Below are positions 1 to 59,560 of a stretch of DNA of 64,000 nt, piece by piece. Under the pieces are notes generated by a model, which worked only from the letters and a program-made list of their open reading frames with translations, was not told where the DNA came from and searched no databases. Source of the stretch: Candidatus Nomurabacteria bacterium (lineage in GTDB: Bacteria; Patescibacteriota; Minisyncoccia; Phycocordibacterales; CALRBL01); NCBI GenBank assembly GCA_963834935.1, contig CAWIDS010000003.1, positions 121,373-185,372 on the forward strand. The letters run 5' to 3'. Position 1 is the stretch's first letter; each line of letters opens with the position of its first letter. The position numbers and the translations under genes are program-made.

Positions 1-544
1 CTAGGCCCGCCTTCTCGATATCCAAATCAGCAAAGCCGAGGGAACGGAGATGACCATAGAGATTGTTCCATCCAGTCTTAGTGGAACCGATCCTCCATTC
101 CGCTATAGTTTCTGAAGCAAGTCCTCGATTCTTCAAATAATCGAGTGATTTATCATCATTTTTCAACTCACTCACATAGAACGACGTGGCCTCCTCCATA
201 ATCTTACGGAGTAGCTCCTTTTCTTCTTCGTCCTTGCGGCTGCTGCTGTTTCCGGCATAGCTTTCGAGCTTTACGCCCGCGCGCTCGGCAAGCAACGCAA
301 GTGCCTCCTTGAAGTCCATCTTCTCGAATTCCTGGACGAAGGTGAAGATATCCCCTTTAGCCCCGCAGCCGAAGCAGTAATAGGATCCGCGTTCCGGTGA
401 CACCATAAAAGAAGGCGTCTTTTCGTTGTGGAAAGGACACTTTCCTTTGAAGTTGGCTCCCGCGCGGTCAAGCTTGATGTATGAAGAGATGATGTCAGAG
501 ATGGGAAGCCGTTCCTTGATCTGTTCGACGGCTTGTGATGACAT
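1..544 (-). CDS. dnaG: DNA primase DnaG, N-terminal part (gene runs off the window start)
   Basis: The reverse-strand translation from ATG at 542-544 reads MSSQAVEQIKERLPISDIISSYIKLDRAGANFKGKCPFHNEKTPSFMVSPERGSYYCFGCGAKGD, carrying the CHC2 zinc-finger signature of DnaG. The start overlaps the rpoC stop (TAATG). It is absent from the ORF track because no stop lies in the window. Confidence 0.8.
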   Translation of the reverse strand, partial: MSSQAVEQIKERLPISDIISSYIKLDRAGANFKGKCPFHNEKTPSFMVSPERGSYYCFGCGAKGDIFTFVQEFEKMDFKEALALLAERAGVKLESYAGNSSSRKDEEEKELLRKIMEEATSFYVSELKNDDKSLDYLKNRGLASETIAEWRIGSTKTGWNNLYGHLRSLGFADLDIEKAGL

Positions 545-3500
545 TATTTTTGAGATGTTTCGTCTTCGATCATCTTCTGCTTGGGACTTCCTGGAAATCC
601 CGTACCTGCAGGAATGAGGCGTCCGATGAGGACATTTTCCATGAGGCCGTGAAGGTCATCGATGCTTCCGCGGATAGCTGAGCCGATAAGGATCTTGTTG
701 GTGTGTTGGAATGAAGCAGCTGATAGAAAGCTTCGGCGGGAAAGAGATACCTCAGTAATACCCATCACCATAGGCTCTGACTTCGCCTCGATTCCTCCCC
801 TTTCCTTTATCTTTTTGTTTTCCTCGACAAGCTCGAAATTTTCGACGATGTCTCCTGCTGAGAACGGACTGTCGCCTGATTCCTTTACCTTCACGCGGGT
901 GAACATCTGGCGCACAATCACTTCGATATGTTTTCGCGATACGGATTCTCCCTGAAGCTCGTAAGGCTTCTTCACTTCGCCGATGACATACTCCTGAGCC
1001 TTTTCGCGGCCGCCGTATCGGAACAATTCGTCGATATCGCACGATCCGTCGGTAAGGATGTCTCCCTTCTTCACTTTGTCTCCTACCTTCACCAGAAGCA
1101 CGCGGATCGGATGAACTGCATATTCGAGTTCATTTTTCGTCTTGGTTGATTTAGATGGCTTTGCCTTGTCGCTGATTTCAGGGACGACAATGATACTTTC
1201 TCTTTTCCGGTATTCCTTATTTCAGTGACCATTCCGTCGACGGTGGCGATTGCAAGGCTGGATTCTTAGGCTTTCGCTTTTCGAAGATCTCTTCGACGCG
1301 AGGAAGTCCGGCAGTGATGTCTCCTCCGACCGAAGCTGTTCCTCCGGCATGGAAAGTACGCATCGTAAGCTGAGTTCCCGGCTCTCCGATGGCTTGCGCA
1401 GCTACCGTTCCGACTGCTTCTCCGATGTCTATCATTCTATTCTTTCCAAGGTCAAGTCCATAGCACATTCGACAGATTCCAGAGAGCGTCTTGCAGGTCA
1501 GAGGAGACCTTACGACTACTCTTGCGATGCCTTGCGCTTCGATCATCTTGGCTTCTGTCTTGGTAAGCAGATGATTGCGCTTGAAGAGCAGCTTTCCGTC
1601 CTTGTCATTCAAGTCTTCAGCAAGCACTCGTCCGCTAATGTATTTCGAGATCGAAGTCTCGATGCCTGAAGCGCTTTCCTTGACGATGGCTATTCCCTCT
1701 TTCGTTCCGCAATCCTCTTCGCTCACTACCACGTTCTGGGCAACCACGAAGAGTTTTCGAGTGAGATATCCGGCTTTAGCAGTGTTAATGCGGTGTCAGT
1801 AAGTCCTTTTCGGGCTCCGTGAGTACGAGATGAAGTATTCGATCGGAGTGAGCCCTTCTTTCGAAGACTGAGAGAACTGGCACTTCGATAGTCTCTCCTT
1901 TCGAGTTCTGGATGAGTCCTTTCATTCCGGCCATCTGAGTGATGTTTCCGATGGAACCTCGGGCTCCCGATGTGACCATGTCGTGGACTGATCCATTCTT
2001 ATCGAGCGTTCCAGGGATAAGCTTCTCGATCTTGCTTTTAGCATCATGCCAGATCTCGACATTCTTTCGAAGCTTCTCCTGCTCTGAAAGGAGTCCTTCA
2101 TTGTATTGCTCGTAAACCAGCTCAGAGTCCTTCTTTGAGGCTTCGATGATCTGGAATTTTCCGTCAGGAATGACGACATCGTCGATTCCCCAAGTGATTC
2201 CTGACTTAGTGACATAAGTGAAGCCGAACTTCTTGATTTCGTCGAGAATGGCAGGAACAGCATTCACTCCGTAAATATTAATGAGGTCTTCGACGATTCC
2301 TGACATGACTTGATCGGGAAATTTCCTTGTTGACGAATGGATAGTCGGCAGGAAGAATAGCGTTGAAAAGAATCCTTCCAACAGTAGTATCGGCAAGCTT
2401 TCCGCCGAAAGCTGCCCATTTAGGACCTTCTTCAGGCAATACCTTTATCGCTGCCCGGAGCGAAAGCGCTCCAAAATCAAGGGCAGACATTGCAGCTTGA
2501 GGACTTTCGAAGATATTTCCTTCACCTTTTTCTCCAACGACAATCTTCGTCGTCCAGTAACATCCGAGCACCACATCAAGAAGCTTTGCAGTGACTGTAG
2601 GATCTCCGCTTCCCGGCTTAAGGATGTTCTTGTCTGACGCCATGATTTCCCGAGCTTCCATCTGCGCTTCTTCTCCGAGAGGAACGTGAACTGCCATGGT
2701 GTCTCCATCGAAGTCGGCATTGAAAGCGGAACATACGAATGGATGCACTTGGATAGCGTTACCTTCGATGAGTACAGGCTGGAAAGCCTGAATACCGAGG
2801 CGATGAAGAGTAGGTGCGCGGTTCAGGAGCACGTATTTATCCTTGATGACGTCTTCAAGGATGGCCCATACTTCAGGAATTCCATCATCGATAAGTCGAG
2901 ATGCGCCGCGGATGTTGAAAGCCAATTCCTTTTCAAGAAGTTTTGAGATGACGAAAGGCCGGAACAATTCCAAGGCCATGTGCTTAGGGAGTCCGCACTG
3001 ATTGAGGCGAAGTTCCGGACCCACGACGATAACCGATCGTCCTGAATAGTCCACGCGCTTTCCAAGGAGGTTCTGTCGGAAGAGTCCTCGTCTTGCCTTT
3101 CAAGTTGTCGGCAAGGGATTTGAGCGGACGTCGCTGTGCCTGATTGACTCCAGCGAAAAGCTGATTGCCGTGCCGGATCGAGTTGTCGATCAAGGCATCG
3201 ACAGCTTCCTGAAGGATTCGTTTTTCGTTTCGAAGAATCACATCAGGAGCTTGAATTTCCTTAAGCTTCTTCAAGCGGTTGTTTCGGTTGATCACGCGTC
3301 GATAAAGGTCATTGACGTCGGATGTCGCGTGTCGTCCTCCGTCGAGAGCGACCATAGGGCGAAGTGCTGCGGGAATGACAGGGATACTGAGTAAGGAACA
3401 TCCATTCAGGACGGAGTCTGAGCTGATCATTCCCTTGATAAGGCCGATTCGCTTGTTCAGTTTTTCGCTTTTCGGTTGAGCTTGCTGATTCGAGATCCTT

Positions 3501-4218
3501 TTCGAGGCTGTCAAGAAGTTTCTTGAGGTCGAGCTTCTTGAAAAGATTGAAGACCGCTTCAGCACCGATTGCAGCTTCGAAGAGCGTTCCGTATTTGAGC
3601 GAGAATTTGTGGTATACGATCTCGTCAAGGACTCGTCCTTCCTGGATACTCTCGATGTCGCGCTTTGCGCTGATCAGAAGTTGCTTGATTGCTTCCTTCG
3701 TTTTCTCGTCCTGAAGCGACTTTTCACTTTTGATCTTGTATTCGGAATCGAGATCCTTGAGCACGCGTGTCCGTTCTTCCTCATTAACCTTAGTGACGAG
3801 GTATCCGGCAAAGTAAACAACTTTCTCGAGCTCGCCACTGTTCATTCCCAGAAGAAGCGCGATTCGAGAAGGCATGGTTCGGAGGAACCAGATATGAGAA
3901 ACGGGCGTTGCAAGCTCGATATGCCCCATTCGTTCTCGGCGCACGATTGATCGCGTGATTTCCACTCCGCATTTTTCGCAGATGATTCCTTTGTATCTGA
4001 TGCCTCGGTATTTTCCGCAGTAACACTCATAATCCTTGTCCGGACCGAAAATCTTCTCGTCGAAGAGGCCATTCTTCTCGGAACGCTGGGTACGATAGTT
4101 CATCGTCTCAGGCTTGGTCACTTCTCCACGATGACCATTCCTTGATTCTCTCAGGCGATGCAAGCTTGAGTGAACTGGATCGAAATCGTTGAGGGTGTCA
4201 TGTTTTGTTTTTTTTCAT
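544..4218 (-). pseudogene. rpoC: RNA polymerase beta-prime subunit, split into at least 6 frame-shifted pieces as written
   Basis: Minus-strand ORF pieces 3309-4163, 2984-3628, 2278-3054, 1785-2396, 1217-1747 and 544-1101 are collinear with RpoC. Recognisable motifs are [15 protein letters not shown] (zinc finger), [15 protein letters not shown] (catalytic), MRTFHAGG and the C-terminal IGRLIPAGTG. Successive pieces lie in different frames, so these are indels rather than in-frame stops. The start region is atgaaaaaaaacaaaaca-tga: removing one A from the A8 run restores [38 protein letters not shown]. Confidence 0.85.
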
Positions 4219-4237
4219 ATATTTTTTTATATCGTTA

Positions 4238-7461
<3,224 letters not shown>

Positions 7462-8081: not shown

Positions 8082-9154
8082 ATGATCTACGTATTCTTCA
8101 CGCCGGTGGCTCTAGCAGCCTTCGGATACTTCCTCTATCAGCTTTACCGCTGGATGGGAGAAAACCAGATCGGCTTCACCTTCATGGATGGAGGTACCGG
8201 CCGAGTAATCGTCGTCGGCAAGGGCCAACCGGTCAAATTCCTCGTTAACCTTCCCGGTTACGATGTTAATGACCCACATAACCCTGACCAACACGACAAA
8301 AACTTCCCTGATTGGCAGATAATCCCCACGTCGCACTTTAAAGCCTACCGAGATGAAAACTTCCTCAAGAAGCGCCTCGGTATATGGCTTATCCATTGGT
8401 GGCCATTCAATTTCGTATACGAGTATAAGTTCAGCTGGGTGGAATTTCGCCAACCAGCAGGGCAGAACGAGTACACGACGCGTTCTCGGGAAGAAACGAC
8501 TAAAATCTTCATGGCGCAGAATTTCCCTTACTTCTCCGAAGTGACGGATTTCTACATCAGTGGAAATGCAGTCTTCAGCCTTCCCTATGCGGTAAACTTA
8601 GCCATCACCAATCCCATGATTGCCCTTTTCGGGAACGAAGACTGGCTGGCAACAGCCCTCTTCGCCCTGAATGAGCGTGCCAAGGATTGGGCAGGTGGCC
8701 AAAGCCTTGAACAGCTTCTCTCCGAAGCTGACGACGTAAAAGGCTCGATCAAGGAGTCATTCGACGAATGGATGAAGGAAATCAATAAGTTCCTCATAGA
8801 AAAAGTCGGAGTAGAGCTCAAAAGCGCGAACTTCCTGAAGCTCGTTGACAGAAACGAAGCAGCGGGAGCAATGCGTCAGGCAATTCAAGCTGTCTTCATC
8901 GCCCAACGGAGCGCGGATGCATCAGCATTCGATGCGACTCGGATCAAAATATCGGCCTGTCGGAGGCGAAGGTAGTACGAGCAAAAGCCGAAGCAGATGT
9001 CGCCGGAGAACTAACGTTCGCGGAAGCGTATCGCAATCATCCAGAACTCGCTCGCGCTCGCGCGATCGAACGGACCGGCCTCACTACACTCGTCGAAGGA
9101 GGCTCAAACCCGCCGCCCGTCATTCTTGACGCAAGCGGCAAACCAACTCGATAA
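8082..9154 (+). CDS. SPFH/band-7 (stomatin/HflC-like) membrane protein; one apparent frameshift near 8940-8975
   Basis: The N-terminal TM helix plus SPFH core runs 8082-8975. The C-terminal coiled segment typical of the family (..AKVVRAKAEADVAGELTFAEAYRNHPELARARAIERTGL..) continues in another frame to the TAA at 9152-9154. Confidence 0.6.
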
Positions 9155-9185
9155 AACACACAATCAAAAAAGGAAAAACTAAGAA

Positions 9186-9329
9186 ATGAAATTATTAATA
9201 ACACTGTTCTGGGGAACGATGTTCCTTGGAATCGTTGCTCTAACCATCGCCTACCTGCGCGGTCGGCGACCAGCAGCGCCGGAGCAGCGCCCGCTCCTGC
9301 CGGACCATCGGTCTGGAACACGATAAAGC
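9186..9329 (+). CDS. small membrane protein (47 aa), hypothetical
   Basis: ATG preceded by aaggaaaaa. The product MKLLITLFWGTMFLGIVALTIAYLRGRRPAAPEQRPLLPDHRSGTR has one TM helix. It is not in the ORF track because it is under 60 aa. Confidence 0.3.
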
Positions 9330-9343
9330 TGGCCTCCATCAAT

Positions 9344-10309
9344 ATGGGCGGTCAGCTCCGGACACAGCTCCAGACCAACTGGAAAATGATCTTCTTCCTG
9401 ACGGCAGGATTTGGACTTATTTTTTGGATGGTGACCAGTCCTCTTCCCTTCAATCTCGGCTTGCCTGAGGCTGATCGGAATTGGATCTGGCTCGTCGGAA
9501 CTGGCCTGATGAAGTTCCTTCTCTTCGTAGCTGTCATTGGCGCAGGACTCTGCATCAGTGCCGGCACGCCTGGGAAGGTGCTCTTCAGGATCATGATGGC
9601 AGTACTCGCCATCATGGCACTCTGCCTCATCTGGCATGAGCTTGCGAGCTCGGCCAGCAAGGTGGATTGGAAAGCGCTCAACCCGTTCAGTGCTAGCGCC
9701 GCGGCTCCGACCTCTTCAACAAGGTCGCCGCTCGGCAACAGCGCTAACAGCAGCAATGCTGGAGCGAACATCAACATAACTGTTGATGGGTCTGATGTTC
9801 ACAGCTTCTTCCAAGCACACTCCCACGAGTTGCTTGTGGGATTCATAGTGGTCATCATTCTCGTACTGCTCGCCTTCCTGATCTGTACTAAGATCGGCAG
9901 GTCAGTGCTGCTTGGACTGTTGCTTGTGTGCCTCACCCTTCTTGCTGTCTGCAAGCTTGGGGCGGCTATCAAGAATGGCGGCCACATCACGCCGAAGCCG
10001 CCTGAGCAGATGATCCTGCCTTCAATGCACATCAGTTCGGACCTGTGGTATCGGGTCGACTGGACGGATAATTGGCGGCACTGGAATTACCGCGACTTCA
10101 AGCGGCCGCTGCCAAGCAAGGTGCTGGTTATCTTCAGCAAAGAGGAGCCGGAGATGACCGATCCTGCCCAGTACATCATCAGCAACAAGACCGACTTCAA
10201 GGATGTTCGCGGGGATCATAGCATCCCTATGTGGATACGTCTGGAACCTGTCGATGGTCAAAACATCGAGGGTGACGTGACAATCTACTACGAGCATCAT
10301 GATGGATAG
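9344..10309 (+). CDS. polytopic membrane protein, hypothetical (321 aa)
   Basis: Several hydrophobic helices and a central Ser/Ala/Asn-rich linker; no recognisable catalytic motif. Confidence 0.6.
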   Translation: MGGQLRTQLQTNWKMIFFLTAGFGLIFWMVTSPLPFNLGLPEADRNWIWLVGTGLMKFLLFVAVIGAGLCISAGTPGKVLFRIMMAVLAIMALCLIWHELASSASKVDWKALNPFSASAAAPTSSTRSPLGNSANSSNAGANINITVDGSDVHSFFQAHSHELLVGFIVVIILVLLAFLICTKIGRSVLLGLLLVCLTLLAVCKLGAAIKNGGHITPKPPEQMILPSMHISSDLWYRVDWTDNWRHWNYRDFKRPLPSKVLVIFSKEEPEMTDPAQYIISNKTDFKDVRGDHSIPMWIRLEPVDGQNIEGDVTIYYEHHDG

Positions 10310-10354: not shown

Positions 10355-10384
10355 GCTCGGACCATCACTGGTCCGAGCTTTTTT
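10355..10384 (+). terminator. rho-independent terminator (gctcggaccatcactggtccgagc plus T6), likely bidirectional
   Basis: A GC-rich 10-bp stem followed by tttttt lies between the convergent genes ending at 10309 (+) and 10405 (-). Confidence 0.6.
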
Positions 10385-10404: not shown

Positions 10405-10677
10405 TTATTTTTCTACCGCATCAAGAGTATTCGAAGTATTGATTCCGAAGGTTCCGGTTATGAGCTTGAGTATCCCGAAAGCCGATATCATTATGGCCAT
10501 TCCGATAAGACCGTACATGACATGCCTTTTTGCCGTCTCTAAGGCATCCGCTTCATTGGCTTTCCGTATGAACTGGACCAGTCCCCAAAGGAAGACCAGC
10601 AAAGCCACGGCAAACATCAGGATGATGATAGGATTCAGTATCTCCGTGCTTATGGCCGAAATGATTTTATCGAGCAT
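10405..10677 (-). CDS. small two-TM protein, paralog 1 of 6 (VirB2/TrbC-like pilin-type fold suspected)
   Basis: 90 aa. TM1, then a hydrophilic loop with KANEADALETAKRHV, then TM2. Same architecture as the next five genes but the most divergent and lacking the GGD motif. Confidence 0.5.
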   Translation of the reverse strand: MLDKIISAISTEILNPIIILMFAVALLVFLWGLVQFIRKANEADALETAKRHVMYGLIGMAIMISAFGILKLITGTFGINTSNTLDAVEK

Positions 10678-10702
10678 TTATTTGATGAGCTGGAGACTTG
10701 GA

Positions 10703-11059
10703 CTATTGGGAGCCAGTAGGAACTTGGTTCGGAATCTGGACAGTGTTGTTGTTCAAACCGATAGTGTTCGAAAGGATGCGCACGAGTCCCCAGACCGAGG
10801 TCATGATGAAGATGATGACGATTCCGAGGATGATGGTGTTTCGAGCCTCCTTTATCTTGTCAGGATCTCCGCCGGCAGTGACATATCGGAGAAGTCCGAA
10901 GATGAATACGAGCACCGCTACTCCGATAACGAACGGTATAAGCTTGTTAATGAAAGAGCTTATGCCTGTGAGGAAATCGCCGTTCGACAAATCAAGTGCC
11001 TGGGCGAAAAGCAACCCTGGAAGAAGCAACAATGCGAGTGAACCTAAAAATTTTTTCAT
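10703..11059 (-). CDS. small two-TM protein with signal peptide, paralog 2 of 6 (VirB2/TrbC-like)
   Basis: 118 aa. Signal-peptide-like N-terminus, then IPFVIGVAVLVFIFGLLRYVTAGGDPDKIKEARNTIILGIVIIFIMTSVWGLVRILSNTI, which is the shared core of the family. Confidence 0.65.
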   Translation of the reverse strand: MKKFLGSLALLLLPGLLFAQALDLSNGDFLTGISSFINKLIPFVIGVAVLVFIFGLLRYVTAGGDPDKIKEARNTIILGIVIIFIMTSVWGLVRILSNTIGLNNNTVQIPNQVPTGSQ

Positions 11060-11135
11060 ACGATAAATTAATTTCTTATAATAAGCTTAAGTGTAGCACA
11101 ACTGCCAATCTCCACAATAGGATTTATCCGAAAGC

Positions 11136-11474
11136 CTAGCTGACGGTATTGTTATGGCTGCCGTCAACGCCGTCGATATTCTTGGCGCCGGGAACCTGCG
11201 GTATCTCATCCGAACTAGGAGTGGTGTTTGAAAGCATGATGGTATTTGAAATTACTCGGACCAATCCCCAGACGCACGTCATGACGAAGATGATGACTAT
11301 CCCCATGATTATGCTGTCACGCGCTTCCTTTATGGTATCGGAATCTCCCCCCGCCCTGATGTATTTCAAAAGGCCGAATACGAAGATAAGCACAGCGACA
11401 CCAATGATGACGTAGATCGTCTGATTGATGAATTTGGTGATAGTAGCAATTGATGTGGTGGCATCAGTGAACAT
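11136..11474 (-). CDS. small two-TM protein, paralog 3 of 6
   Basis: 112 aa. The core YVIIGVAVLIFVFGLLKYIRAGGDSDTIKEARDSIIMGIVIIFVMTCVWGLVRVISNTI is over 70% identical to paralog 2. Confidence 0.65.
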   Translation of the reverse strand: MFTDATTSIATITKFINQTIYVIIGVAVLIFVFGLLKYIRAGGDSDTIKEARDSIIMGIVIIFVMTCVWGLVRVISNTIMLSNTTPSSDEIPQVPGAKNIDGVDGSHNNTVS

Positions 11475-11480
11475 TTGTGT

Positions 11481-11756
11481 TTATTTTAGCTGAGGGACAG
11501 TATAGCCATTCGAGAAGAAGGTGTTGACGAGGATGTGAACAAGTCCCCATACGGATATCATAACGAAAAGGGCTATGATGCCGAAGATGATGTAATTGCG
11601 CGCCTCCTTGACCGCGTCCGAATCCCCTCCTGCCGACATGTACTTCAGAAGGCCGAAGATGAACAGAAGCACGGCGACACCGATAATGAGCGGGATAAGA
11701 AGATTGATCGAATTAGTGAAGAAAGAAACTACGCATTTGAAATCAGTACAATTCAT
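11481..11756 (-). CDS. small two-TM protein, paralog 4 of 6
   Basis: 91 aa. Core IPLIIGVAVLLFIFGLLKYMSAGGDSDAVKEARNYIIFGIIALFVMISVWGLVHILVNT. Confidence 0.65.
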   Translation of the reverse strand: MNCTDFKCVVSFFTNSINLLIPLIIGVAVLLFIFGLLKYMSAGGDSDAVKEARNYIIFGIIALFVMISVWGLVHILVNTFFSNGYTVPQLK

Positions 11757-11765
11757 ATGTTTTTA

Positions 11766-12143
11766 TTATGATGAAGCGCTGCCAATATTGGTAACCGTGG
11801 TCTGGATGACGGTCGAGATGACCTTGGCGCCAAGGAGGATAGCAGCGCCGATGACTGTGTAAAGAAGGACGAGCTTTGCCGTCTTTATCTTCCCTTCGTC
11901 TCCGGCTGCCGTCACGAAAAGGAAGCCGGCGTAGATGATGGCGATGATACAGGCGATAGCGCCAAGCTTCATGACTCCGGCCAGGATATTATTAAGAAAA
12001 GTAAAAAGATCCCCATTGCCGTTCAAAGGATTGCAGATTTTCCCCCCGCAATCAGTAGGAGAATAGTCTGCAAAGGAATAGAGGGGAAGTGAAAGGGCTG
12101 CTACTGCCACCAAGACTGCCGCGTATTTCATTATTTTTTTCAT
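11766..12143 (-). CDS. small two-TM protein with signal peptide and Cys-containing ectodomain, paralog 5 of 6
   Basis: 125 aa. Signal peptide, DCGGKIC, then GAIACIIAIIYAGFLFVTAAGDEGKIKTAKLVLLYTVIGAAILLGAKV; shares the hydrophobic-AGGD-xxKIKxAK-hydrophobic pattern. Confidence 0.6.
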   Translation of the reverse strand: MKKIMKYAAVLVAVAALSLPLYSFADYSPTDCGGKICNPLNGNGDLFTFLNNILAGVMKLGAIACIIAIIYAGFLFVTAAGDEGKIKTAKLVLLYTVIGAAILLGAKVISTVIQTTVTNIGSASS

Positions 12144-12146
12144 ATA

Positions 12147-12599
12147 TTATTTTTGCTGCAACATGCTGTAGTTCGGATTGACGCCTAAGGTGGTAAGTAT
12201 GAAATGGACAATAAGCCATGCGCCAAAAGTGAAGACGAAGCCCAGCACCACCTTCCCTATCATCCCTTTCGCTTGTTCAACTTTACCACTATTTCCTCCT
12301 GATGTCAGCATCAGGAATCCCGCATAGACCAAAGTGATGGTAGCAATGACGATGGTGGCATAAAGGAGAAGATCGATGATGCGGTTTATGAGATTGATGA
12401 GGTCACTCCAGGTACATGATTTCTCGCCGCTGCCGGGTGCGCCGGTCGAATTGATCTGGCTCAGTAAAGGTGTTCCTTGGCAAAAAGTGCCGTCTATTAT
12501 CGAATAGTTTGAATCGCCCGGATTGTTGCTCATAGCCAACGCAGAATATGCTGGAAAGAGAAGGCTGAGCGAAAAGATGAATAGAAGTATTTTTCTCAT
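12147..12599 (-). CDS. small two-TM protein with signal peptide and Cys-containing ectodomain, paralog 6 of 6 (ORF-track start 12635 probably too long)
   Basis: The internal Met MRKILLFIFSLSLLFPAYSALA at 12599 begins just after the stop of the upstream gene. It carries ..CQGTP..CTW.. and IATITLVYAGFLMLTSGGNSGKVEQAKGMIGKVVLGFVFTFGAWLIV. Confidence 0.55.
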   Translation of the reverse strand: MRKILLFIFSLSLLFPAYSALAMSNNPGDSNYSIIDGTFCQGTPLLSQINSTGAPGSGEKSCTWSDLINLINRIIDLLLYATIVIATITLVYAGFLMLTSGGNSGKVEQAKGMIGKVVLGFVFTFGAWLIVHFILTTLGVNPNYSMLQQK

Positions 12600-12600
12600 T

Positions 12601-13941
12601 TTAATTGGCATTCTTATTGCTAATAATAAGGTCAAATTGCTCTTCAGCCTTGGCTACTGCTTCGCCTGAAGTATTTTGGCCCGAAAGGACTGATTCGATC
12701 ATCTCCTGGAAGATCCCTTGCGATTGGCCAGGCGCCGGATCAAGCCAAGCATGCGAATACAAAGCGCTCGCATAAAGCGTCGAGCTGAAGCTGTCGGAAG
12801 GAGGATTCGAAAGGAGATCCCTTCTGACCGGCGGCATACCTGAGACAACTGCATATCTCTTCAGGAAATCCTGGCCTGTGAGGGTATTGATCACGCTGAG
12901 GTCTGCCTCCTGTTTTTTCGATGAAGAGAGGATGGATAAGCCGAGCATCTTGCCGTAAGTGACAGGAATCGCTACAGAGCTTGTAGTTGTCCCTGTGCGC
13001 GGCTCAGGAAAAGGAGCCATGCCGAAATTGAGATTAGGATTCTTTGCTTGGATATCCTTCGCTTCGCTTCCGTAGCCGATATACATGGCGAGATTATTCG
13101 CCACAAAATCATCCAAGGAAGAAGGCCGCGAGCGGTTCCATGTGTATTCCTTCTGGGCCGGATTGGCGAACTGAGTGTAGAAATCAATCGGGCTGGAGAC
13201 TTGTCCGAAAGAGACCATTATCGAGTCCTCTTTTTTTCCGGCGTCATATCTGACTGTCGAAATGGGAATGCCGGCTTGGAAGAAAAGCGCCGAAAGGATA
13301 TCCTTGGCATTGTCTACATTGCGATATTCGCCGAGAGCGATGGCGCTCGTCTGGATATTAAAATTAGAATCGGATTTGCCGAGAATAGGAACCAAGGAAA
13401 GGACCTGGTCCCAATGAGTGGGCGGCAGCGGCTGATTGGCTGCGGTGAAGATATCCCTGTTCCAATAAAGGACAAGCGGATCGACGGAAAAAGGCAAAGC
13501 GAGATAGCCGTCATTGACCCGGTACTGCTCCGCTTCTTGTATGAAATTCCCTTTGAAGGTGCTCTCGCTGTAATTCGCAAAAGGAATGGTTGTGATCTTA
13601 TCCTTCTCTGCAAAGACTTGCTCGAGAGGGAGAAGGACGATGTCCGGGCCATTGCCGCTCGCAAGCGCCTCAAGAAGATCCTGATCGAAAGTGATAGGAT
13701 CTTTTTCGACATAAGTAGCATTGATGACAGGAACAAGGCTGTTCGATGACGGCCCATTTATAGCCGAGATGACTCCATTAATCTGCTTGGCGTCGGCAGT
13801 TCCCCAAATGACGACATGTGCCGCCACGGTCTGCGCCTGATTCTTGTTCGAAGAGAAAAAAGAGAATACTACTACTCCCACCAATGTGCCGACGATGCAG
13901 ACGGCGAGGATGATCAATTGAAAAGGATTTGCTTTCGACAT
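12601..13941 (-). CDS. membrane-anchored ABC-transporter solute-binding protein (family 1, sugar-binding type)
   Basis: 446 aa. N-terminal TM anchor then an SBP fold (HVVIWGTADAK.., ..LASGNGPDIVLLPLEQVFAEKDKITTIP.., ..NNLAMYIGYGSEAKD..). No permease or ATPase gene is adjacent. Confidence 0.65.
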   Translation of the reverse strand: MSKANPFQLIILAVCIVGTLVGVVVFSFFSSNKNQAQTVAAHVVIWGTADAKQINGVISAINGPSSNSLVPVINATYVEKDPITFDQDLLEALASGNGPDIVLLPLEQVFAEKDKITTIPFANYSESTFKGNFIQEAEQYRVNDGYLALPFSVDPLVLYWNRDIFTAANQPLPPTHWDQVLSLVPILGKSDSNFNIQTSAIALGEYRNVDNAKDILSALFFQAGIPISTVRYDAGKKEDSIMVSFGQVSSPIDFYTQFANPAQKEYTWNRSRPSSLDDFVANNLAMYIGYGSEAKDIQAKNPNLNFGMAPFPEPRTGTTTSSVAIPVTYGKMLGLSILSSSKKQEADLSVINTLTGQDFLKRYAVVSGMPPVRRDLLSNPPSDSFSSTLYASALYSHAWLDPAPGQSQGIFQEMIESVLSGQNTSGEAVAKAEEQFDLIISNKNAN

Positions 13942-13971: not shown

Positions 13972-14529
13972 TTACATTTTCCGAAATACCAGCCCATAAT
14001 GGTGATCACCTGCGAAAAAATTCTTTTCCTTGACGAAGCCGACGAGGCTTGCGAGCTTTTCCACATGCTCTTCCGTGAAAAGATGATCTGCGCGCGGGCC
14101 GATGCCTTTCTCGCTCTCGCCATTGCGCGCCTTCCAATCGATCACTATCATCTTTCCGCCGTTCTTCAGGATGCGGTATGCATGAGAGAAAACGAACGAC
14201 TTGTCCTTGAGCAAAAAGACGGTGTTTGCGACAAGCACTCGGTCGATCTTTTCGGATGAGAGTATGCCTTCGGGCAATGCAAGGTCAGCCTTGATCACCC
14301 TTATGTGCCCCCATTCATTCTTTTTGGATTCGTTCGAGATTAAAGAAAGCAATTCTTCGTCATTATCAAAAGCATACACCCTTCCATACGGGCCGACGCG
14401 ATGCGCGAGAAGATAAGTGAAATGTCCGGCGCCTGATCCGAAATCGGCGACGTGCATCCCTTCGGCAACATTGAAATGTTCAAGCACTTTTTGAGGATCT
14501 AAGAAAACCATGTGGCAATTATACCACAA
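13972..14529 (-). CDS. class I SAM-dependent methyltransferase
   Basis: VADFGSGAGHFT (motif I) and a Rossmann-fold pattern. Confidence 0.7.
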   Translation of the reverse strand: MWYNCHMVFLDPQKVLEHFNVAEGMHVADFGSGAGHFTYLLAHRVGPYGRVYAFDNDEELLSLISNESKKNEWGHIRVIKADLALPEGILSSEKIDRVLVANTVFLLKDKSFVFSHAYRILKNGGKMIVIDWKARNGESEKGIGPRADHLFTEEHVEKLASLVGFVKEKNFFAGDHHYGLVFRKM

Positions 14530-41653: not shown

Positions 41654-42403
41654 CTAATCTGTCCATTCCGATATCACCTTCTTTGTCTCTTCAGGACCGC
41701 TTACCTGAATACAATCCACGCCAGCAGCCTTGGCAGGATAGTCATTGCCGCCAGGAAAAATAGCATCGCCGACAAAAAGCATCCGGCTTATCGGCACGCT
41801 GAGAAACTCAGACAATTTTGCTATTCCATATGCCTTATCGACGCCTTTTAGGGTTATGTCGATGGAAGTCGTGCCGCCGATATGAATATCGAATTCAGGC
41901 AATTCCTTTCTCAAAATATCTGTTATCTGATTGCGCTTCCTTTTATCGGGATCCCAAGCCTCCTTGAGCTCCAACGGTGCGTTCTGGCCTAAAGCGGAAA
42001 AAGTTATCTGAGAGCCGCGATCCTCTATCGCTTCGCCATAAATTTCCTTCGGAGCGATGTATCTTTCAGAGGAAAGGGCTTCGTTCAATCTGCTTATTAT
42101 CTTTTCCTTGTCAGCAGCGGAAAAGTCCAGCGCGTATTGCTCACGCCATCCGTCCTGCCACGCATACAGCCTCGAGCCCGATGTAGGTAAAAGAAAAAGA
42201 TTCGAAAGCTGCGCTGGGCCACAGGTTATCCTGCTCAGAAATTGATCCTGAAACTGCGAATAAGCGCCGCCAGAAATGACCGCTACTTTCTTTTTCATCA
42301 GGAGGCGCGCGATCAGCGCTGCCATATCGTCATCAATGGCAGATTTGCTGACTGCAAGAGTGCCGTCCAAATCAAAGATGATAAGCTCCTTGTCCGGTTT
42401 CAT
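41654..42403 (-). CDS. HAD-superfamily hydrolase (Cof/PMM-like subfamily IIB)
   Basis: IIFDLDGTLA (motif I) and ..FVGDAIFPGGNDYP.. (motif IV). Confidence 0.7.
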   Translation of the reverse strand: MKPDKELIIFDLDGTLAVSKSAIDDDMAALIARLLMKKKVAVISGGAYSQFQDQFLSRITCGPAQLSNLFLLPTSGSRLYAWQDGWREQYALDFSAADKEKIISRLNEALSSERYIAPKEIYGEAIEDRGSQITFSALGQNAPLELKEAWDPDKRKRNQITDILRKELPEFDIHIGGTTSIDITLKGVDKAYGIAKLSEFLSVPISRMLFVGDAIFPGGNDYPAKAAGVDCIQVSGPEETKKVISEWTD

Positions 42404-42404
42404 A

Positions 42405-44309
42405 TTAAGTTCGAAGTTTCCTTAAGAGCACGTTCAGGTTGATGGCTGCTGCGCCGATAACACTGTCTGCGGCGCCGTAATATATGTATGCGACTCCCTT
42501 GATTACCACCAGGCTGCAAGGAAAGACGACGTTCGGCATCGTGCCTTTGAGCTCATATTCTTCTTCAGGCTCGAAAACAGGAGCGGCGGTACGGGCCTTT
42601 ACCACTGTCGGATCATTCAGATCAAGCAGGAGGGCGCCGACGCGGTACTTCCGGCTCCTTGAAATGCCGTGATAGAGAAGAAGCCATCCTTGCTTGGTCT
42701 TCACGGGAGGTCCGGCGATGCCGACCTTCTCGCTATCCCACATTCCCTGCCGAGGACTTATTATCTCGATGCACCTGGTTATGCTTTCCTTCGAGAAGTC
42801 GAGCGATGAAACCATATCGGCGCAAACGTCATTGTTGACCCTATGTAATATCATGTATTTTCCTCCTATCTTTTCAGGAAGGATCGCGGCATCCTTGTTT
42901 GAAACGGTTGGAGGCGTAATGACGTTCGGTACCGACCAGGCTTTCCAGCGCATGGCGAGAAAATCCTTCACGCTAATCGAGCTCACGGCGACGCGCGGCA
43001 TCTTGCCGTCATATGCGGTGTATGTCATATAGAGCTTATCGCCAACCTGCACGATGCGCGGATCCTCGCAACCATAATTGGCATTGGTTGAATCGGATCT
43101 GCGCTCGAAATCGGCGCGCGGAAGATATATAGGTTTTTTCGGACGTTCGCTGATGGCGAAACCGTCATCACTTACCGCATAGCCCAAGGCCGAGACGTTA
43201 GTGGCTGAAGCTCCCCTATATATGATATGAACCTTGTCGCCAAGATAGATAGCTGCAGGATTCAGAGTCCCGCCAGCCTCCCAGGCTAATCCAGGGCGCG
43301 GAGATATGATGGGGTTGCCGGCATAGCGCTTGAAAGCCGAGCGCTTCGCATTAGTCATGCTGTCCAGAAGGTCATCCAGATACACCGAAGCTATCGCGCA
43401 ATGTGTATCAGCCGCGCCATAATATATTTCCAATTTATCCTTCCTAATCAGCGCGCCGGAAGGAAATACTATATTGCTTACATGACCAACCTTCTCGTAA
43501 TATTCATCAGGAACCATGAACGGCCCTTTGGTGATAGCGATGATTCGCTTTGGATCCTTTGAATCAAGCAGTACTGCTTCGACGCCGAAAACGCTATCCG
43601 GCTTGCCGTAATTCTGGACGCGAGAATAGATGACAAGCCAACCCTTATCCGTCTTTACCGGAGGCGCTCCCAATTCGACTTGGTCGGAACCAGATCGGTG
43701 CAAGGGTATCTTGAATCCATCCAATGCTTTCATCCATTCATTCCAGTATGTTGAGGACCACATATCTTCCGGCTTATCGAATTCTATGTAGCAAATATCA
43801 GAAGGTACCCGATCAGTGTTTATCGTGACCAGCGCAGCCATCTTGCCGTTTATCTTTTCTGGGAAAAGCGCCATGGCTTTGGCATTGAAAGGCGTGACCA
43901 GATGCTTCTCGTCGATGGTTTTCAGATCCTTGCTCAGAGCGACGGCAACTTTGATATTGTCAGCGGAAAAAGGAAAGCCACCGAGTGCGGTATAGAATAT
44001 GTAATACGTCTTGCCGATTTTGGTTATGCGCGGATCCTCGCAGCCGTACTTGTCATATTCGGTGCTCGGCCCGAACAGGATTCTCCTGTTTTCAAAGTGA
44101 ACGCCATCCTTCGCCTCCGCCACGGCAATGACTGAAGTGCTTATATGAGGCTCTCTTAGTATTTCTTGCTCCGATTGTGCCCGATAGAGCAAATAAGTCT
44201 TATTCTTTTCTGCTATCGGACATCCGTTGAAAGTCGCCAAAGCTTCCCATGGACGAGATTTGTCGGGCGAGAGAATCGGATTATGGCTTGATCTGGTGAG
44301 AGTGAACAT
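42405..44309 (-). CDS. tandem double GH130-family glycoside phosphorylase-like protein
   Basis: Two repeats of the GH130 core, each with YGCEDPRI and beta-propeller motifs (..GWLVIYSRV.., ..GWLLLYHGI..). Start taken at MFTLTRSSHNPIL; the ORF-track start 44408 would overlap the upstream gene. Confidence 0.7.
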   Translation of the reverse strand: MFTLTRSSHNPILSPDKSRPWEALATFNGCPIAEKNKTYLLYRAQSEQEILREPHISTSVIAVAEAKDGVHFENRRILFGPSTEYDKYGCEDPRITKIGKTYYIFYTALGGFPFSADNIKVAVALSKDLKTIDEKHLVTPFNAKAMALFPEKINGKMAALVTINTDRVPSDICYIEFDKPEDMWSSTYWNEWMKALDGFKIPLHRSGSDQVELGAPPVKTDKGWLVIYSRVQNYGKPDSVFGVEAVLLDSKDPKRIIAITKGPFMVPDEYYEKVGHVSNIVFPSGALIRKDKLEIYYGAADTHCAIASVYLDDLLDSMTNAKRSAFKRYAGNPIISPRPGLAWEAGGTLNPAAIYLGDKVHIIYRGASATNVSALGYAVSDDGFAISERPKKPIYLPRADFERRSDSTNANYGCEDPRIVQVGDKLYMTYTAYDGKMPRVAVSSISVKDFLAMRWKAWSVPNVITPPTVSNKDAAILPEKIGGKYMILHRVNNDVCADMVSSLDFSKESITRCIEIISPRQGMWDSEKVGIAGPPVKTKQGWLLLYHGISRSRKYRVGALLLDLNDPTVVKARTAAPVFEPEEEYELKGTMPNVVFPCSLVVIKGVAYIYYGAADSVIGAAAINLNVLLRKLRT

Positions 44310-44313
44310 GTTT

Positions 44314-45474
44314 TTATGCTTTTCCGTGAGCGACAAGCCAATCGAGAAGTGGACGGAGCGGGGTTTTGGCCGTGCAGACATATTTATCTCCACCTCCATA
44401 GTATACAACCAAATCTTCCCCGTCGATCACCGCGCCGGACGCATATACCACTCCCGACTTCATGTCATTCTCATAAGGCATATCGGGCTCGAGCAGCGGG
44501 CCGCGGGAACGATAAAGTATCCTAGTCGGATCGGAGATATCCAGTATCATGCAGCCAAGCTTGTATTTATCTGGATCATTCTTGTCCATGGCGTGATACA
44601 GGAGCAGCCATCCGATGTCGGTCCTCAAGGGCGGCGCACCTGCTCCGCGCATCCAATTGTCCCAATGGCTCGGCCTGCCTCCTGATGGCGGCGAACTCTT
44701 TATGTGCTTGCCCGGCTGTTCATATATCTCATCCAGATAATCTATCTTGATGTCGGGAGATATGCTGTGCAGGACTGCGAACTTGCCATTTATCTTTTCG
44801 GGGAAAAGCACCCAGTTCTTATTCACTTCTCCCATAGGAGAAATGAATCGCTGCCGTTTCCAATTCCAGCGCTTCTTCTTTAAGTCTTCAGTCTTTATCG
44901 ACGTAAGCACGATGCGTACGCAGTCCCACCCCTCGAATGCCGTATAGGTCATGTAGGCTCGATCACCGATGATCACCAGCCGCGGATCCTCGCACCCTCC
45001 CCAGCCGCCACCTGACACGTAGATGCTCGAATCATAATTTTGCGGATATTCTTGACTTCTTTCTTTAGGATCGCGCGATGCAACTGAAACATACACTGGG
45101 TAGTCTGTTCTATCGTCGAATTTCACGCCGTCACGGCTTCTTGCATATCCGATGCGCGACAATCCGTCTTGGCCGATAGCGCGATAGAACATATGGAATA
45201 TGCCATCTTCATCCCTCGCTACGGCTGGATTGAATGTAGCTACCGTCTCCCATTCCCTGTGAGCCTGCGGCTTTATTATGGGATTATGCTTATGACGCTC
45301 CAGTGACAATCTGTCTGGCTTATGCTTCTTTGAAGATTTTCTCTTCGGAAAGAAAAGGAGGATGATCGAATATATCAGGTAAGCGGCAGATACGAGAATT
45401 ACAATCAGAAAAATGAACCAAATCATTTTTAATTCAGCACTGCCATCAATTAAAAAAAGTGATTGCATCAGCAC
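44314..45474 (-). CDS. GH130-family glycoside phosphorylase-like protein with N-terminal TM anchor
   Basis: TM helix then ..HNPIIKP.., GGCEDPRLV and GWLLLYHAMD. Confidence 0.7.
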   Translation of the reverse strand: MLMQSLFLIDGSAELKMIWFIFLIVILVSAAYLIYSIILLFFPKRKSSKKHKPDRLSLERHKHNPIIKPQAHREWETVATFNPAVARDEDGIFHMFYRAIGQDGLSRIGYARSRDGVKFDDRTDYPVYVSVASRDPKERSQEYPQNYDSSIYVSGGGWGGCEDPRLVIIGDRAYMTYTAFEGWDCVRIVLTSIKTEDLKKKRWNWKRQRFISPMGEVNKNWVLFPEKINGKFAVLHSISPDIKIDYLDEIYEQPGKHIKSSPPSGGRPSHWDNWMRGAGAPPLRTDIGWLLLYHAMDKNDPDKYKLGCMILDISDPTRILYRSRGPLLEPDMPYENDMKSGVVYASGAVIDGEDLVVYYGGGDKYVCTAKTPLRPLLDWLVAHGKA

Positions 45475-57516: not shown

Positions 57517-58887
57517 TTACGGTTGTTGCAAGATATCGATGTTTGACTGGATCGCAGTGGCTTTGGCTATGACCTGATCTCCGTAGAAGGTATTGCTTCC
57601 CGAGCAATTACGGCCCGAATAATAACGGCAAGCGGCATTGTGCTCTGCGGTATAGCCTCCTGCAGAAGCCCCAAGGTCTGACAGATAAAGGGCTGAAGCG
57701 GTGATGGCATCCTGAGGATTCCAAGGATCAGGCATGGCTTTTCCTACCGCATGTCCGATCCTGTCCTTGCTAAGCATCCAGGTCGAGGCAATGAATTGCG
57801 CTGGACCCATAGCTCCTCCGTAGCCAACACTGAACGGACAGGAGACGCGAGTATGATGGGAATCGCGTCCGAGGGCGGTCGTTATCTCAATGAAAGGCTC
57901 GATATCCCTTCCCGGTTTCATCACGTTAGCGACGGCCGCTCCGCTCGATACTTTGACCCCGGCTCCGGTAGTATCGTCGGAAAGATAGCACGAACCTACA
58001 TTTGCCCCCAGATTGCTTTCTTGCTGGATGATGGCAAGTATGAATGCAGGACGGACTCCAGTGATAGCGGAAGCTGATTTGGCATATGTAAGGGCATCTT
58101 CGAATTTGATGGCTGATACGTCGCGCAATTGGAACAAGGCATTCCTAATCTGCGTCGCTTGCGCCTCCTTCTGAGCGATGAGATTTTGATACTGGCTCTG
58201 CTGCTGTTTGTTGAGGCTCAGAAGCTGTTTCTTGTCCGCCTCAGCTTTTTTAATATTAGCCTGTTCCTGCTCGATATTCACTTTGGTATCGATCTCCTGA
58301 TTCTTTTGCTGATCGAGCGATTGCTTCTGTACTTCAGTCTGGGCTTCAGCCTGCTTTACCGTTCCCAAGAGGCTGCTGAGAGAATCCTGAATGGAAGAAA
58401 GAGCGTCGAAATCGATGAAAAAATCAGTGAGATTCCTCTGCGCGAGAAAGGCATCTGCTATTGAGAAAGAATCAAGCTGGTTAGTCTGGTCTATGATCTC
58501 GCTCAATGACTGGTGCCCTTGGTCGATCTGGCTGCTCAGGGTGTTTATGGTCTGTACCTTGACTGTAATATCCTTGCCGAGCTGGGCAATCGCCAGATTA
58601 TGGGCCTTTATCTTAAGCTGCGCCTCTGCAATCTGGGCATCGAGGATGGCAATGTCACGACTTATGGATTTCCCTTCGCCTTCCTTCTCTGTCAGGATGG
58701 CCTGCTGCTGAGTGATCTGATTCTCGATATCAGTAAGCTCGGCTTGGAGAGCGGCTTGCTGGGCAGGGGTGAGAGGTGCCGGCGTAGTCTGGGAAAATCC
58801 CGGGATTATATGAAAAGAAAAGGCTGCTGTTGCTATCAAAGCAAGAGAAAAAAAGCCGATTACTGTCTTTTTTATGGAAATACGCAT
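57517..58887 (-). CDS. secreted coiled-coil protein with C-terminal lysozyme-like/transglycosylase-like domain (putative peptidoglycan hydrolase)
   Basis: Signal/TM, a roughly 250-aa Gln/Ala-rich coiled coil, then ..AIIQQESNLGANVGSCY.. (ES catalytic dyad-like). Confidence 0.5.
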   Translation of the reverse strand: MRISIKKTVIGFFSLALIATAAFSFHIIPGFSQTTPAPLTPAQQAALQAELTDIENQITQQQAILTEKEGEGKSISRDIAILDAQIAEAQLKIKAHNLAIAQLGKDITVKVQTINTLSSQIDQGHQSLSEIIDQTNQLDSFSIADAFLAQRNLTDFFIDFDALSSIQDSLSSLLGTVKQAEAQTEVQKQSLDQQKNQEIDTKVNIEQEQANIKKAEADKKQLLSLNKQQQSQYQNLIAQKEAQATQIRNALFQLRDVSAIKFEDALTYAKSASAITGVRPAFILAIIQQESNLGANVGSCYLSDDTTGAGVKVSSGAAVANVMKPGRDIEPFIEITTALGRDSHHTRVSCPFSVGYGGAMGPAQFIASTWMLSKDRIGHAVGKAMPDPWNPQDAITASALYLSDLGASAGGYTAEHNAACRYYSGRNCSGSNTFYGDQVIAKATAIQSNIDILQQP

Positions 58888-58912
58888 GTAATATACTGGA
58901 AATGCCAGAGCA

Positions 58913-59560
58913 CTATTCCGCCGCCTCTGACGCACCCTCTTCTTCTTTCTTTCCTTTACTTACCGAAAGCTCGATAGCAGAAAGATCCACTGGAGCTGAT
59001 TCCTCGATGACTTCTTCTTTTGCCTCAGATACAAGAGCAATCACTTCTTCAGGAGCAGAAACGAGATCAACACCGGCTGGAAGGATGATGTCTTTAGCAA
59101 GGATCTGCGATTCGAAATTGACCAATGAATCGATCGAAACGGTGAGGGCGTGAGGAAGGTTCGAAGGTGTAGCCTCGATTTCGATTTCGTGAGCTACCTT
59201 GACCAAAGTACCTCCTAGTTCCTTTACGGCAGGAGAATTTCCTTCAAAGTGGAGAGGAACGTTGACCTGGACCTTCTTTCCCTTTTCGACGACATAGAAG
59301 TCGACGTGGCGGACTTTTTCAGTGACGGGATCTAGGTCAATATCGTGGATAAGGGCTTCATGGTCGCCCCTCTCGGTCTTAAGGACGACGATCGAGGATT
59401 CTCCGGCCTGCTTCCATACTCGCATGAATTCTACTTCAGAGAGAGTGATAGGGGTCGAGGATTCCTTTCGGCCGTAAAATACGGCAGGAATCTTGCCATT
59501 CTTGCGAAGATTATAGATATTATCGGCCTTTGCCCGTGTTGTTGTTGCAAGTGTGATCAT
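58913..59560 (-). CDS. rplY: 50S ribosomal protein L25 / general stress protein Ctc
   Basis: ..RKNGKIPAVFYGRKESSTPITL.. Confidence 0.8.
   Translation of the reverse strand: MITLATTTRAKADNIYNLRKNGKIPAVFYGRKESSTPITLSEVEFMRVWKQAGESSIVVLKTERGDHEALIHDIDLDPVTEKVRHVDFYVVEKGKKVQVNVPLHFEGNSPAVKELGGTLVKVAHEIEIEATPSNLPHALTVSIDSLVNFESQILAKDIILPAGVDLVSAPEEVIALVSEAKEEVIEESAPVDLSAIELSVSKGKKEEEGASEAAE

Follow-up and report, generated by a model that had tools for sequence, protein, structure and literature searches.

The operon described here occupies positions 10405-13941 of a 64-kb stretch of DNA from a Candidatus Nomurabacteria bacterium (contig CAWIDS010000003.1, positions 121,373 to 185,372); this whole stretch is called the window, and positions are counted from its first nucleotide. 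According to the list of open reading frames (ORFs), it consists of seven co-oriented minus-strand genes, the first for a solute-binding protein (SBP) and the other six for small putative pilins that we name, in the order of transcription, p6, p5, p4, p3, p2, and p1 (Table 1); the six consecutive small minus-strand genes behind an SBP that a first-pass annotation of the sequence had reported are, therefore, in place. This SBP-pilin operon is chromosomal and is conserved across Paceibacteria (Parcubacteria, Patescibacteria). The gene sizes reported earlier, 90-162 amino acids (aa), also hold, except for p6: its longest ORF does encode 162 aa (12147-12635), with a TTG start and a 35-nt overlap with the SBP gene; however, translation from an ATG at 12599, 1 nt past the SBP stop (12601), yields 150 aa (MRKILLF...), and this ATG, which an independent gene call in a second assembly also uses, is most likely the start.

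Table 1. The SBP-pilin operon and its immediate borders (window positions; PF18895 values are whole-protein scores).
Feature	Position	Strand	Description	Evidence
SBP	12601..13941	-	family-1 solute-binding protein, MalE-like, membrane-anchored, 446 aa	Pfam, AlphaFold 2, Foldseek
p6	12147..12599	-	class A, array position 1, 150 aa, signal peptide	PF18895 35.8 bits
p5	11766..12143	-	class B, array position 2, 125 aa, signal peptide, Cys32/Cys37	PF18895 35.5 bits
p4	11481..11756	-	class C, AGGD-loop group, 91 aa, no signal peptide, Cys3/Cys8	PF18895 28.9 bits
p3	11136..11474	-	class C, 112 aa, no signal peptide, polar C-terminal tail	PF18895 28.9 bits
p2	10703..11059	-	class C, penultimate, 118 aa, signal peptide, 76-nt gap before the gene	PF18895 25.9 bits
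p1	10405..10677	-	class D, array end, 90 aa, no signal peptide	PF18895 23.5 bits
Bidirectional intrinsic-terminator-like hairpin	10355..10378	.	10-bp stem with 7 GC pairs, T-runs on both strands; closes the operon	
Class I S-adenosylmethionine methyltransferase	13972..14529	-	directly upstream of SBP	PF13847, PF08241, PF13649

Relatives of the SBP were found in at least 552 species-representative genomes by a pattern scan with the SBP alignment; we kept 80 loci (given an L number where one has to be singled out) and searched their ORFs with a hidden Markov model (HMM) built from the six window paralogs. The SBP homologs come from Parcubacteria, Paceibacterota, Taylorbacteria, and Zambryskibacteria. 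Immediately downstream of the SBP homolog, and on the same strand, 4-8 pilin ORFs are found in all loci with enough DNA (74/74; E = 1e-5 to 1e-39); the remaining six of the 80, in which no pilin was matched, end no more than 411 nt past the SBP stop. Because the paralog HMM finds same-strand arrays behind the SBP in 74 other species, the recurrence of this arrangement is far beyond chance. From the SBP stop, the first pilin ORF is separated by a median of 2 nt, and mostly by -4 to +19 nt; this spacing of the SBP and the class A pilin (classes are defined below) is tight enough for translational coupling. Together with natural gene fusions, this linkage confirms the association of SBP and array noted earlier and shows it to be much stronger than a single sequence could reveal.

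The conserved order extends upstream. A class I methyltransferase directly precedes the SBP in 71 of 76 loci and GyrA is next upstream in 50 of 62; this gyrA-methyltransferase-SBP-pilin order is kept at SBP identities as low as 38-52%, and the flanks outside the gyrA-to-pilin block differ between species. The methyltransferase is a possible member of the SBP-pilin system. As a separate observation, the GyrA upstream of the operon carries an intein (Intein_splicing; proteins of 1193-1215 aa) in L007 (5713-9294) and L008 (4315-7962); the GyrA of L015 (1490-5131) is similarly long (1213 aa).

When each foreign pilin is assigned to its best-matching window paralog, the pilins fall into four classes: A (p6-type), B (p5-type), C (p2-, p3-, and p4-types), and D (p1-type). 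The classes occupy fixed places: position 1 of the array is p6-type in 72 of 74 arrays, position 2 is p5-type in 71 of 73, and the last gene is p1-type in 62 of 74; several of the arrays that end without a p1-type gene appear to be cut by the contig end. The middle positions hold one to five copies of the p2/p3/p4-types, with p4-like genes commonest at position 3 (48/72) and p2-like genes commonest at the penultimate position (50/73). The score margins between classes are large for p6, p5, and p1 and small among p2, p3, and p4. The p6-, p5-, and p1-types score far better against their own class than against their genomic neighbors; therefore, their divergence is ancient and each class has been retained. 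The array thus preserves at least four ancient classes in a set order, and copy number changes only in class C. The comparison of copy number among relatives that the first-pass annotation had suggested thus yields 4-8 pilins per array, with the variation confined to the p2-p4 class; its general explanation, repeated duplication and diversification, does not survive, since the p6-, p5-, and p1-types are ancient positional orthologs and only the p2/p3/p4 class varies. The ordered classes argue for a heteromeric assembly.

In two species the partnership is covalent. In L087 (568 aa) and L061 (560 aa), the SBP and a p6-type pilin are encoded by a single ORF, with both domains confirmed by Pfam; the two fusion proteins are 66% identical to each other and their genes contain no runs of N. 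The SBP domain is located directly N-terminal to the Cys loop and first transmembrane (TM) helix of the pilin, which places it on the expected outward (extracellular) side. An apparent third fusion, in L030, was rejected as an artefact of a run of N, and a homolog search with p6 returned four proteins with no SBP-pilin fusion among them. Other extracellular modules occur at the same end of the array. In L036, the place of the first pilin behind the SBP is taken by a single ORF (4722-6347, plus strand) that joins a signal peptide and a subtilase S8 domain to the Cys loop and T4SS_pilin hairpin. The first two pilins of L010 (8276-10331) and L018 (8276-10332) bear N-terminal domains of 200-300 aa that are Cys-rich or contain PT linkers; the domain in L010 consists of Cys-rich repeats joined by PT-rich linkers. 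With SBP, subtilase, and Cys-rich/PT-linker domains at these positions, pilins of classes A and B thus behave like carriers for extracellular modules. ORFs with two complete pilin hairpins (tandem double pilins) are also found, in L005 (12047-12835), L019 (9562-10293), and L028 (10579-11316).

All six window pilins are membrane hairpins of two helices joined by a short basic loop, and three of the six have a Sec-type signal peptide. Hydropathy identifies two strong hydrophobic helices in 6/6 and an additional N-terminal signal-like segment in p6, p5, and p2 that is absent from p4, p3, and p1. Cys pairs are located shortly before the first TM helix in p6, p5, and p4; in p6, the signal peptide is followed by an extracellular region of ~50 aa with Cys40/Cys62 and then by the hairpin. 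Two TM helices, an optional signal peptide, and occasional paired Cys had been described from the sequence at first sight, and this description stands. The AGGD loop that the six were said to share is found as (R/K)Y..AGGD(S/P)D..KEAR in p2-p4, whereas p5 (AAGDEGKIKTAK), p6 (SGGNSGKVEQAK), and p1 (KANEADALETAK) carry degenerate versions. Likewise, the statement that paralogs 2-4 are over 60% identical is correct for p2-p3 (68% local identity) and p2-p4 (64%) but not for p3-p4 (54%); the remaining pairs are 17-33% identical. In an AlphaFold 2 (AF2) model of p2 (predicted local distance difference test (pLDDT) score 75), helices at residues 2-21, 29-61, and 66-104 form a signal helix and a two-helix hairpin with the AGGD motif at its turn.

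The family assignment depends on profile matches. PF18895, the pilin family of type IV secretion systems (T4SS_pilin; gathering cut-off 26.6 bits, whole-protein score), is matched by all six proteins: p6, p5, p4, and p3 score above the cut-off, and p2 and p1 slightly under it (Table 1); p1-type orthologs are picked up by the paralog HMM in 62 species. PF04956 (TrbC/VirB2; cut-off 27.9 bits) gives weak matches to three, that is, p6 (22.4 bits, E=1.5e-4), p5 (22.1 bits, E=1.8e-4), and p2 (17.6 bits). NF045849 (Mbov_0395 pilin-like conjugal transfer protein; cut-off 40 bits) is matched by all six at 15-28.8 bits (E=3.3e-6 for p1) and is the top NCBIfam match for five of the six and the second for p3. 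The type IV pilin profile N_methyl (PF07963) has no match at E<=1 in the six pilins or in the SBP, and no G/FTLIE prepilin motif is visible in the six sequences; the motif was judged absent from the outset, and the profile search agrees. Holins and other families of small membrane proteins were considered and set aside, as only PF18895-type matches are consistent across the six. Because 6/6 match PF18895, four of them above the cut-off, their assignment as homologs of VirB2/TrbC-type pilins, and not of type IV pilins, is supported; the VirB2/TrbC type proposed earlier is upheld by PF18895 (6/6) together with the weak PF04956 matches (3/6).

The SBP has a single N-terminal TM helix (residues ~6-30), a short linker, and a two-lobe SBP domain that matches PF01547 (E=2.5e-13, 51.2 bits) and PF13416 (E=5.3e-13, 49.8 bits). 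Its AF2 model (pLDDT 93) retrieves sugar SBPs as the top Foldseek matches in the PDB (5ci5, 4qsd, and 2zyo; E~1e-20), and the nearest PDB relative of its sequence profile is the mannobiose-binding protein 4r9f. Its fold is intact, and numerous aromatic and acidic positions do not vary across 59 homologs; this conservation suggests, indirectly, that the SBP may bind a small ligand in the cleft between its lobes. The TM anchor (residues 1-30, window 13852-13941) starts with a conserved ..PFQLI.. sequence, with F7 and G22 each conserved in at least 90% of the 59 homologs. It bears a loose resemblance to a prepilin signal with the key residues absent: the N-terminus (..NPFQLII..) was rejected as a class III (type IV pilin-like) signal, since it lacks both Gly at -1 and Glu at +5 and does not match N_methyl. 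No ABC (ATP-binding cassette) transporter ATPase (Walker A and ABC signature in one ORF) is encoded in the 64-kb window, permeases not having been searched separately, and no ORF with Walker A and LSGGQ is found within 7 kb of the SBP in the 80 species; in these ranges, the SBP is, as first noted, without a nearby ABC partner. Elsewhere in the window (41654-45474, minus strand), a phosphomannomutase-like gene is followed by two genes for GH130 beta-1,4-mannooligosaccharide phosphorylases; these GH130 genes and the mannobiose-binding relative 4r9f may hint at the class of the ligand, or may coincide by chance.

Within the operon, a promoter consensus scan of the gap before p2 gave none on the minus strand. 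Two genes convergent with the array (8082-10309, plus strand), for proteins of 297 aa and 321 aa (the latter multi-TM), use the same bidirectional terminator; the matching position in the relative L002 encodes a 386-aa Band_7 protein and a 353-aa unknown protein. The rest of the window is housekeeping: GyrA, the FtsA and FtsZ region, aminoacyl-tRNA synthetases, and ribosomal proteins. A 472-aa protein with an SLT lytic-transglycosylase domain, that is, a VirB1-like activity, is encoded 43 kb from the pilin array (57517-58935, minus strand). At 2-7317 (minus strand), segments of rpoB and rpoC lie in alternating frames, with ~13 frame changes in 7.3 kb; the total span is normal, there are no Ns and no homopolymer runs at the junctions, and the other large genes in the window are intact; either local assembly errors or pseudogenisation could be the source.

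Pilin arrays of this family have been described before, so the first-pass view of an undescribed system is not supported. In a search of 3,035 Patescibacteria genomes with PF18895 and PF04956, Quiñonero-Coronel et al. (2025; PMC12102498) found 441 arrays of 2-11 VirB2-like pilin genes, with a mean identity of ~25% within an array; Microgenomatia and Saccharimonadia have the most arrays, the authors suggested that the arrays may serve adaptation to hosts, and neither an SBP nor positional classes are mentioned. Pilin genes were near virB4 in 1135 of the 1948 assemblies with both pilin and VirB4; VirB4 is present in 2417/3035 Patescibacteria genomes. In Southlakia epibionticum, the only species in which this has been tested, the T4SS cluster is essential and includes six PF18895 pilins (SEML1_0014-0019) next to VirB6 (Wang et al., 2023; PMC10633639). 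The role of the T4SS and VirB2-like pilins of Patescibacteria has been called ‘completely unknown’ (PMC11665869); speculation ranges from effector delivery to uptake of host molecules (PMC12857230), and reviews speculate on a pilus-like conduit. An SBP is not referred to in any of these papers, and we found no report of an SBP-pilin link in Parcubacteria in the open-access literature; what looks unreported is that the array has an obligate SBP partner, stands apart from the T4SS cluster, keeps its classes in order, and includes cargo fusions.

Comparison with individual systems shows what is shared. The S. epibionticum array also consists of about six divergent two-TM PF18895 pilins in tandem, in a monoderm organism of the same phylum that otherwise carries a Gram-positive-type T4SS; its cluster contains no SBP, whereas the window array is outside a T4SS cluster, behind gyrA, a methyltransferase, and a dedicated SBP, and is more than 7 kb from VirB4/VirB6-like genes in the 80 species. 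The TrbC/VirB2 conjugative pilins of diderm T4SSs (Agrobacterium VirB2, RP4 TrbC, F TraA) are likewise small pro-pilins in which a signal peptide precedes two hydrophobic helices and a short basic loop connects these; however, their profile similarity to the window pilins is weak (E ~1e-4 for p2, p5, and p6, below the Pfam cut-off), and here three paralogs lack a signal peptide, the organism has no outer membrane, and no VirB5 or VirB1 is linked. The tandem, divergent VirB2 genes of Bartonella and Anaplasma, as far as PMC12102498 presents them in citing them, are read as variation of one subunit, whereas the window classes are ancient, ordered, and architecturally distinct. The Mbov_0395 family of Mycoplasma integrative and conjugative elements (ICEs; NF045849) shares the ~80-aa two-TM hairpin and a monoderm system of the MPF-FATA (mating-pair formation FATA) type, but the window pilin genes are not on an ICE, occur in several copies, and score below the cut-off. 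The SBP shares its fold and Pfam families with the cluster-B carbohydrate SBPs of ABC importers (MalE, 4r9f, and Atu4361, 4qsd); unlike these, it has no linked ATPase (permeases not searched separately), is TM-anchored, always has pilin genes behind it, and forms one protein with a pilin in two species. In the archaeal bindosome (Sulfolobus), sugar-binding proteins are functionally tied to small pilin-like Bas proteins in a surface assembly that depends on type IV pilin-like signals and on an ATPase and a membrane protein of the type IV pilus type; the window pilins are of the T4SS (VirB2) type, and the N-terminus of the SBP has no class III signal.

We favor, as the probable explanation, a T4SS-assembled heteromeric surface structure of pilins that carries the SBP as its ligand-binding module. 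Sec or YidC would insert the pilins so that both termini lie outside and the basic loop faces the cytoplasm; an MPF-FATA-like, Patescibacteria-type T4SS, presumably encoded elsewhere in the genome, would then extract them and build a short heteromeric pilus or conduit from them. Class C would provide the bulk subunit, and classes A and B would be minor ‘cargo-bearing’ pilins; the SBP would be held outside the membrane, at or beside the class A pilin. The SBP might bind a carbohydrate-like ligand, either a glycan on the host surface (adhesion or host recognition) or a host-derived solute that is handed to the conduit. In this model, we infer assembly by a T4SS, formation of a pilus, contact between SBP and pilin where they are not fused, and the ligand. 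The more specific proposal, that SBP and ordered pilins are one surface apparatus, a VirB2-like filament or conduit in which the class A pilin carries a MalE-like receptor (elsewhere a protease or Cys-rich domain) for host-glycan recognition or host-carbohydrate capture in Paceibacteria, is tentative, and we regard it as possible rather than probable.

Several observations weigh against a T4SS-assembled structure. As was first remarked for the VirB4 and VirD4 ATPases, neither these nor VirB3, VirB6, or VirB8 are found in the 64-kb window, which covers part of a 201.5-kb contig, and no VirB4-like large P-loop ORF is found within 7 kb of the array in the 80 related species. None of the six pilins reaches the cut-off of PF04956 or NF045849. 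PDB searches by structure and by sequence profile returned only generic helical hairpins, with no match to VirB2 or TraA; therefore, the link to VirB2 comes from sequence profiles and from the genomic neighborhoods in which the family occurs in other genomes. The SBP-pilin fusion was found in only one clade (two species). Because the whole gyrA-to-pilin block is syntenic, the adjacency of SBP and pilins could, by itself, be inherited gene order. Finally, no pilus has been seen for any PF18895 protein, and the function of the family is unknown even in Saccharibacteria (PMC11665869).

The strongest competitor of the T4SS-assembled surface structure, although one that we judge unlikely, is a T4SS-independent channel, that is, a fixed hetero-oligomeric membrane channel of five to eight distinct two-TM subunits, for which the SBP acts as substrate receptor; such a channel would represent a novel form of binding-protein-dependent uptake in organisms that import most of their building blocks. 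The fixed order and classes would suit a stoichiometric complex, the start/stop spacing suggests translational coupling, an SBP-subunit fusion exists, and neither an ABC ATPase (near the SBP, 80 species) nor a VirB4-like gene (within 7 kb of the array) was found. However, PF18895 proteins sit inside T4SS clusters in other Patescibacteria, no energising component is linked to the operon, a class C copy number of 1 to 5 is unusual for a fixed channel, and the subtilase and Cys-rich repeats at the class A position fit the display of surface modules better.

A still less likely explanation is that the paralogs are interchangeable pilins for antigenic or host-range variation, as proposed for the VirB2 proteins of Bartonella and Anaplasma and suggested for the Patescibacteria arrays (PMC12102498). 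This published interpretation would account for the low identity of most paralog pairs (17-33%) and for the different copy numbers of the p2-p4 class among species. Yet the class order is fixed and copy-number change is confined to one class; therefore, free diversification or antigenic variation is disfavored as the main theme. In addition, 62-72 of ~74 species have positional orthologs of p6, p5, and p1, the classes are built differently (with or without a signal peptide, Cys loop, or cargo domains), and there are no repeats or invertible elements that would indicate switching. We give as little credence to a pairing of unrelated neighbors, in which the SBP is an ordinary sugar-ABC receptor with its permease and ATPase elsewhere and adjacency is conserved gene order: the syntenic block and the typical carbohydrate-SBP fold and sequence agree with it, but adjacency is kept in 74/74 at 38-52% SBP identity while the outer flanks change, the SBP-pilin gap is mostly -4 to +19 nt, in-frame fusions that are 66% identical are kept in two species, and the SBP uses a TM anchor instead of a lipoprotein signal.

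If the more specific proposal of one surface apparatus is correct, the SBP would be the first component with a ligand-binding role to be connected with the essential but enigmatic T4SS pilins of Patescibacteria, and a binding protein would be working with a T4SS-type assembly instead of an ABC transporter. The ordered classes argue for a heteromeric machine and not for variants of one subunit, which changes the reading of the published arrays. An SBP that is locked to a pilin array, and fused to it in some species, provides a concrete handle on the function of these pilins.

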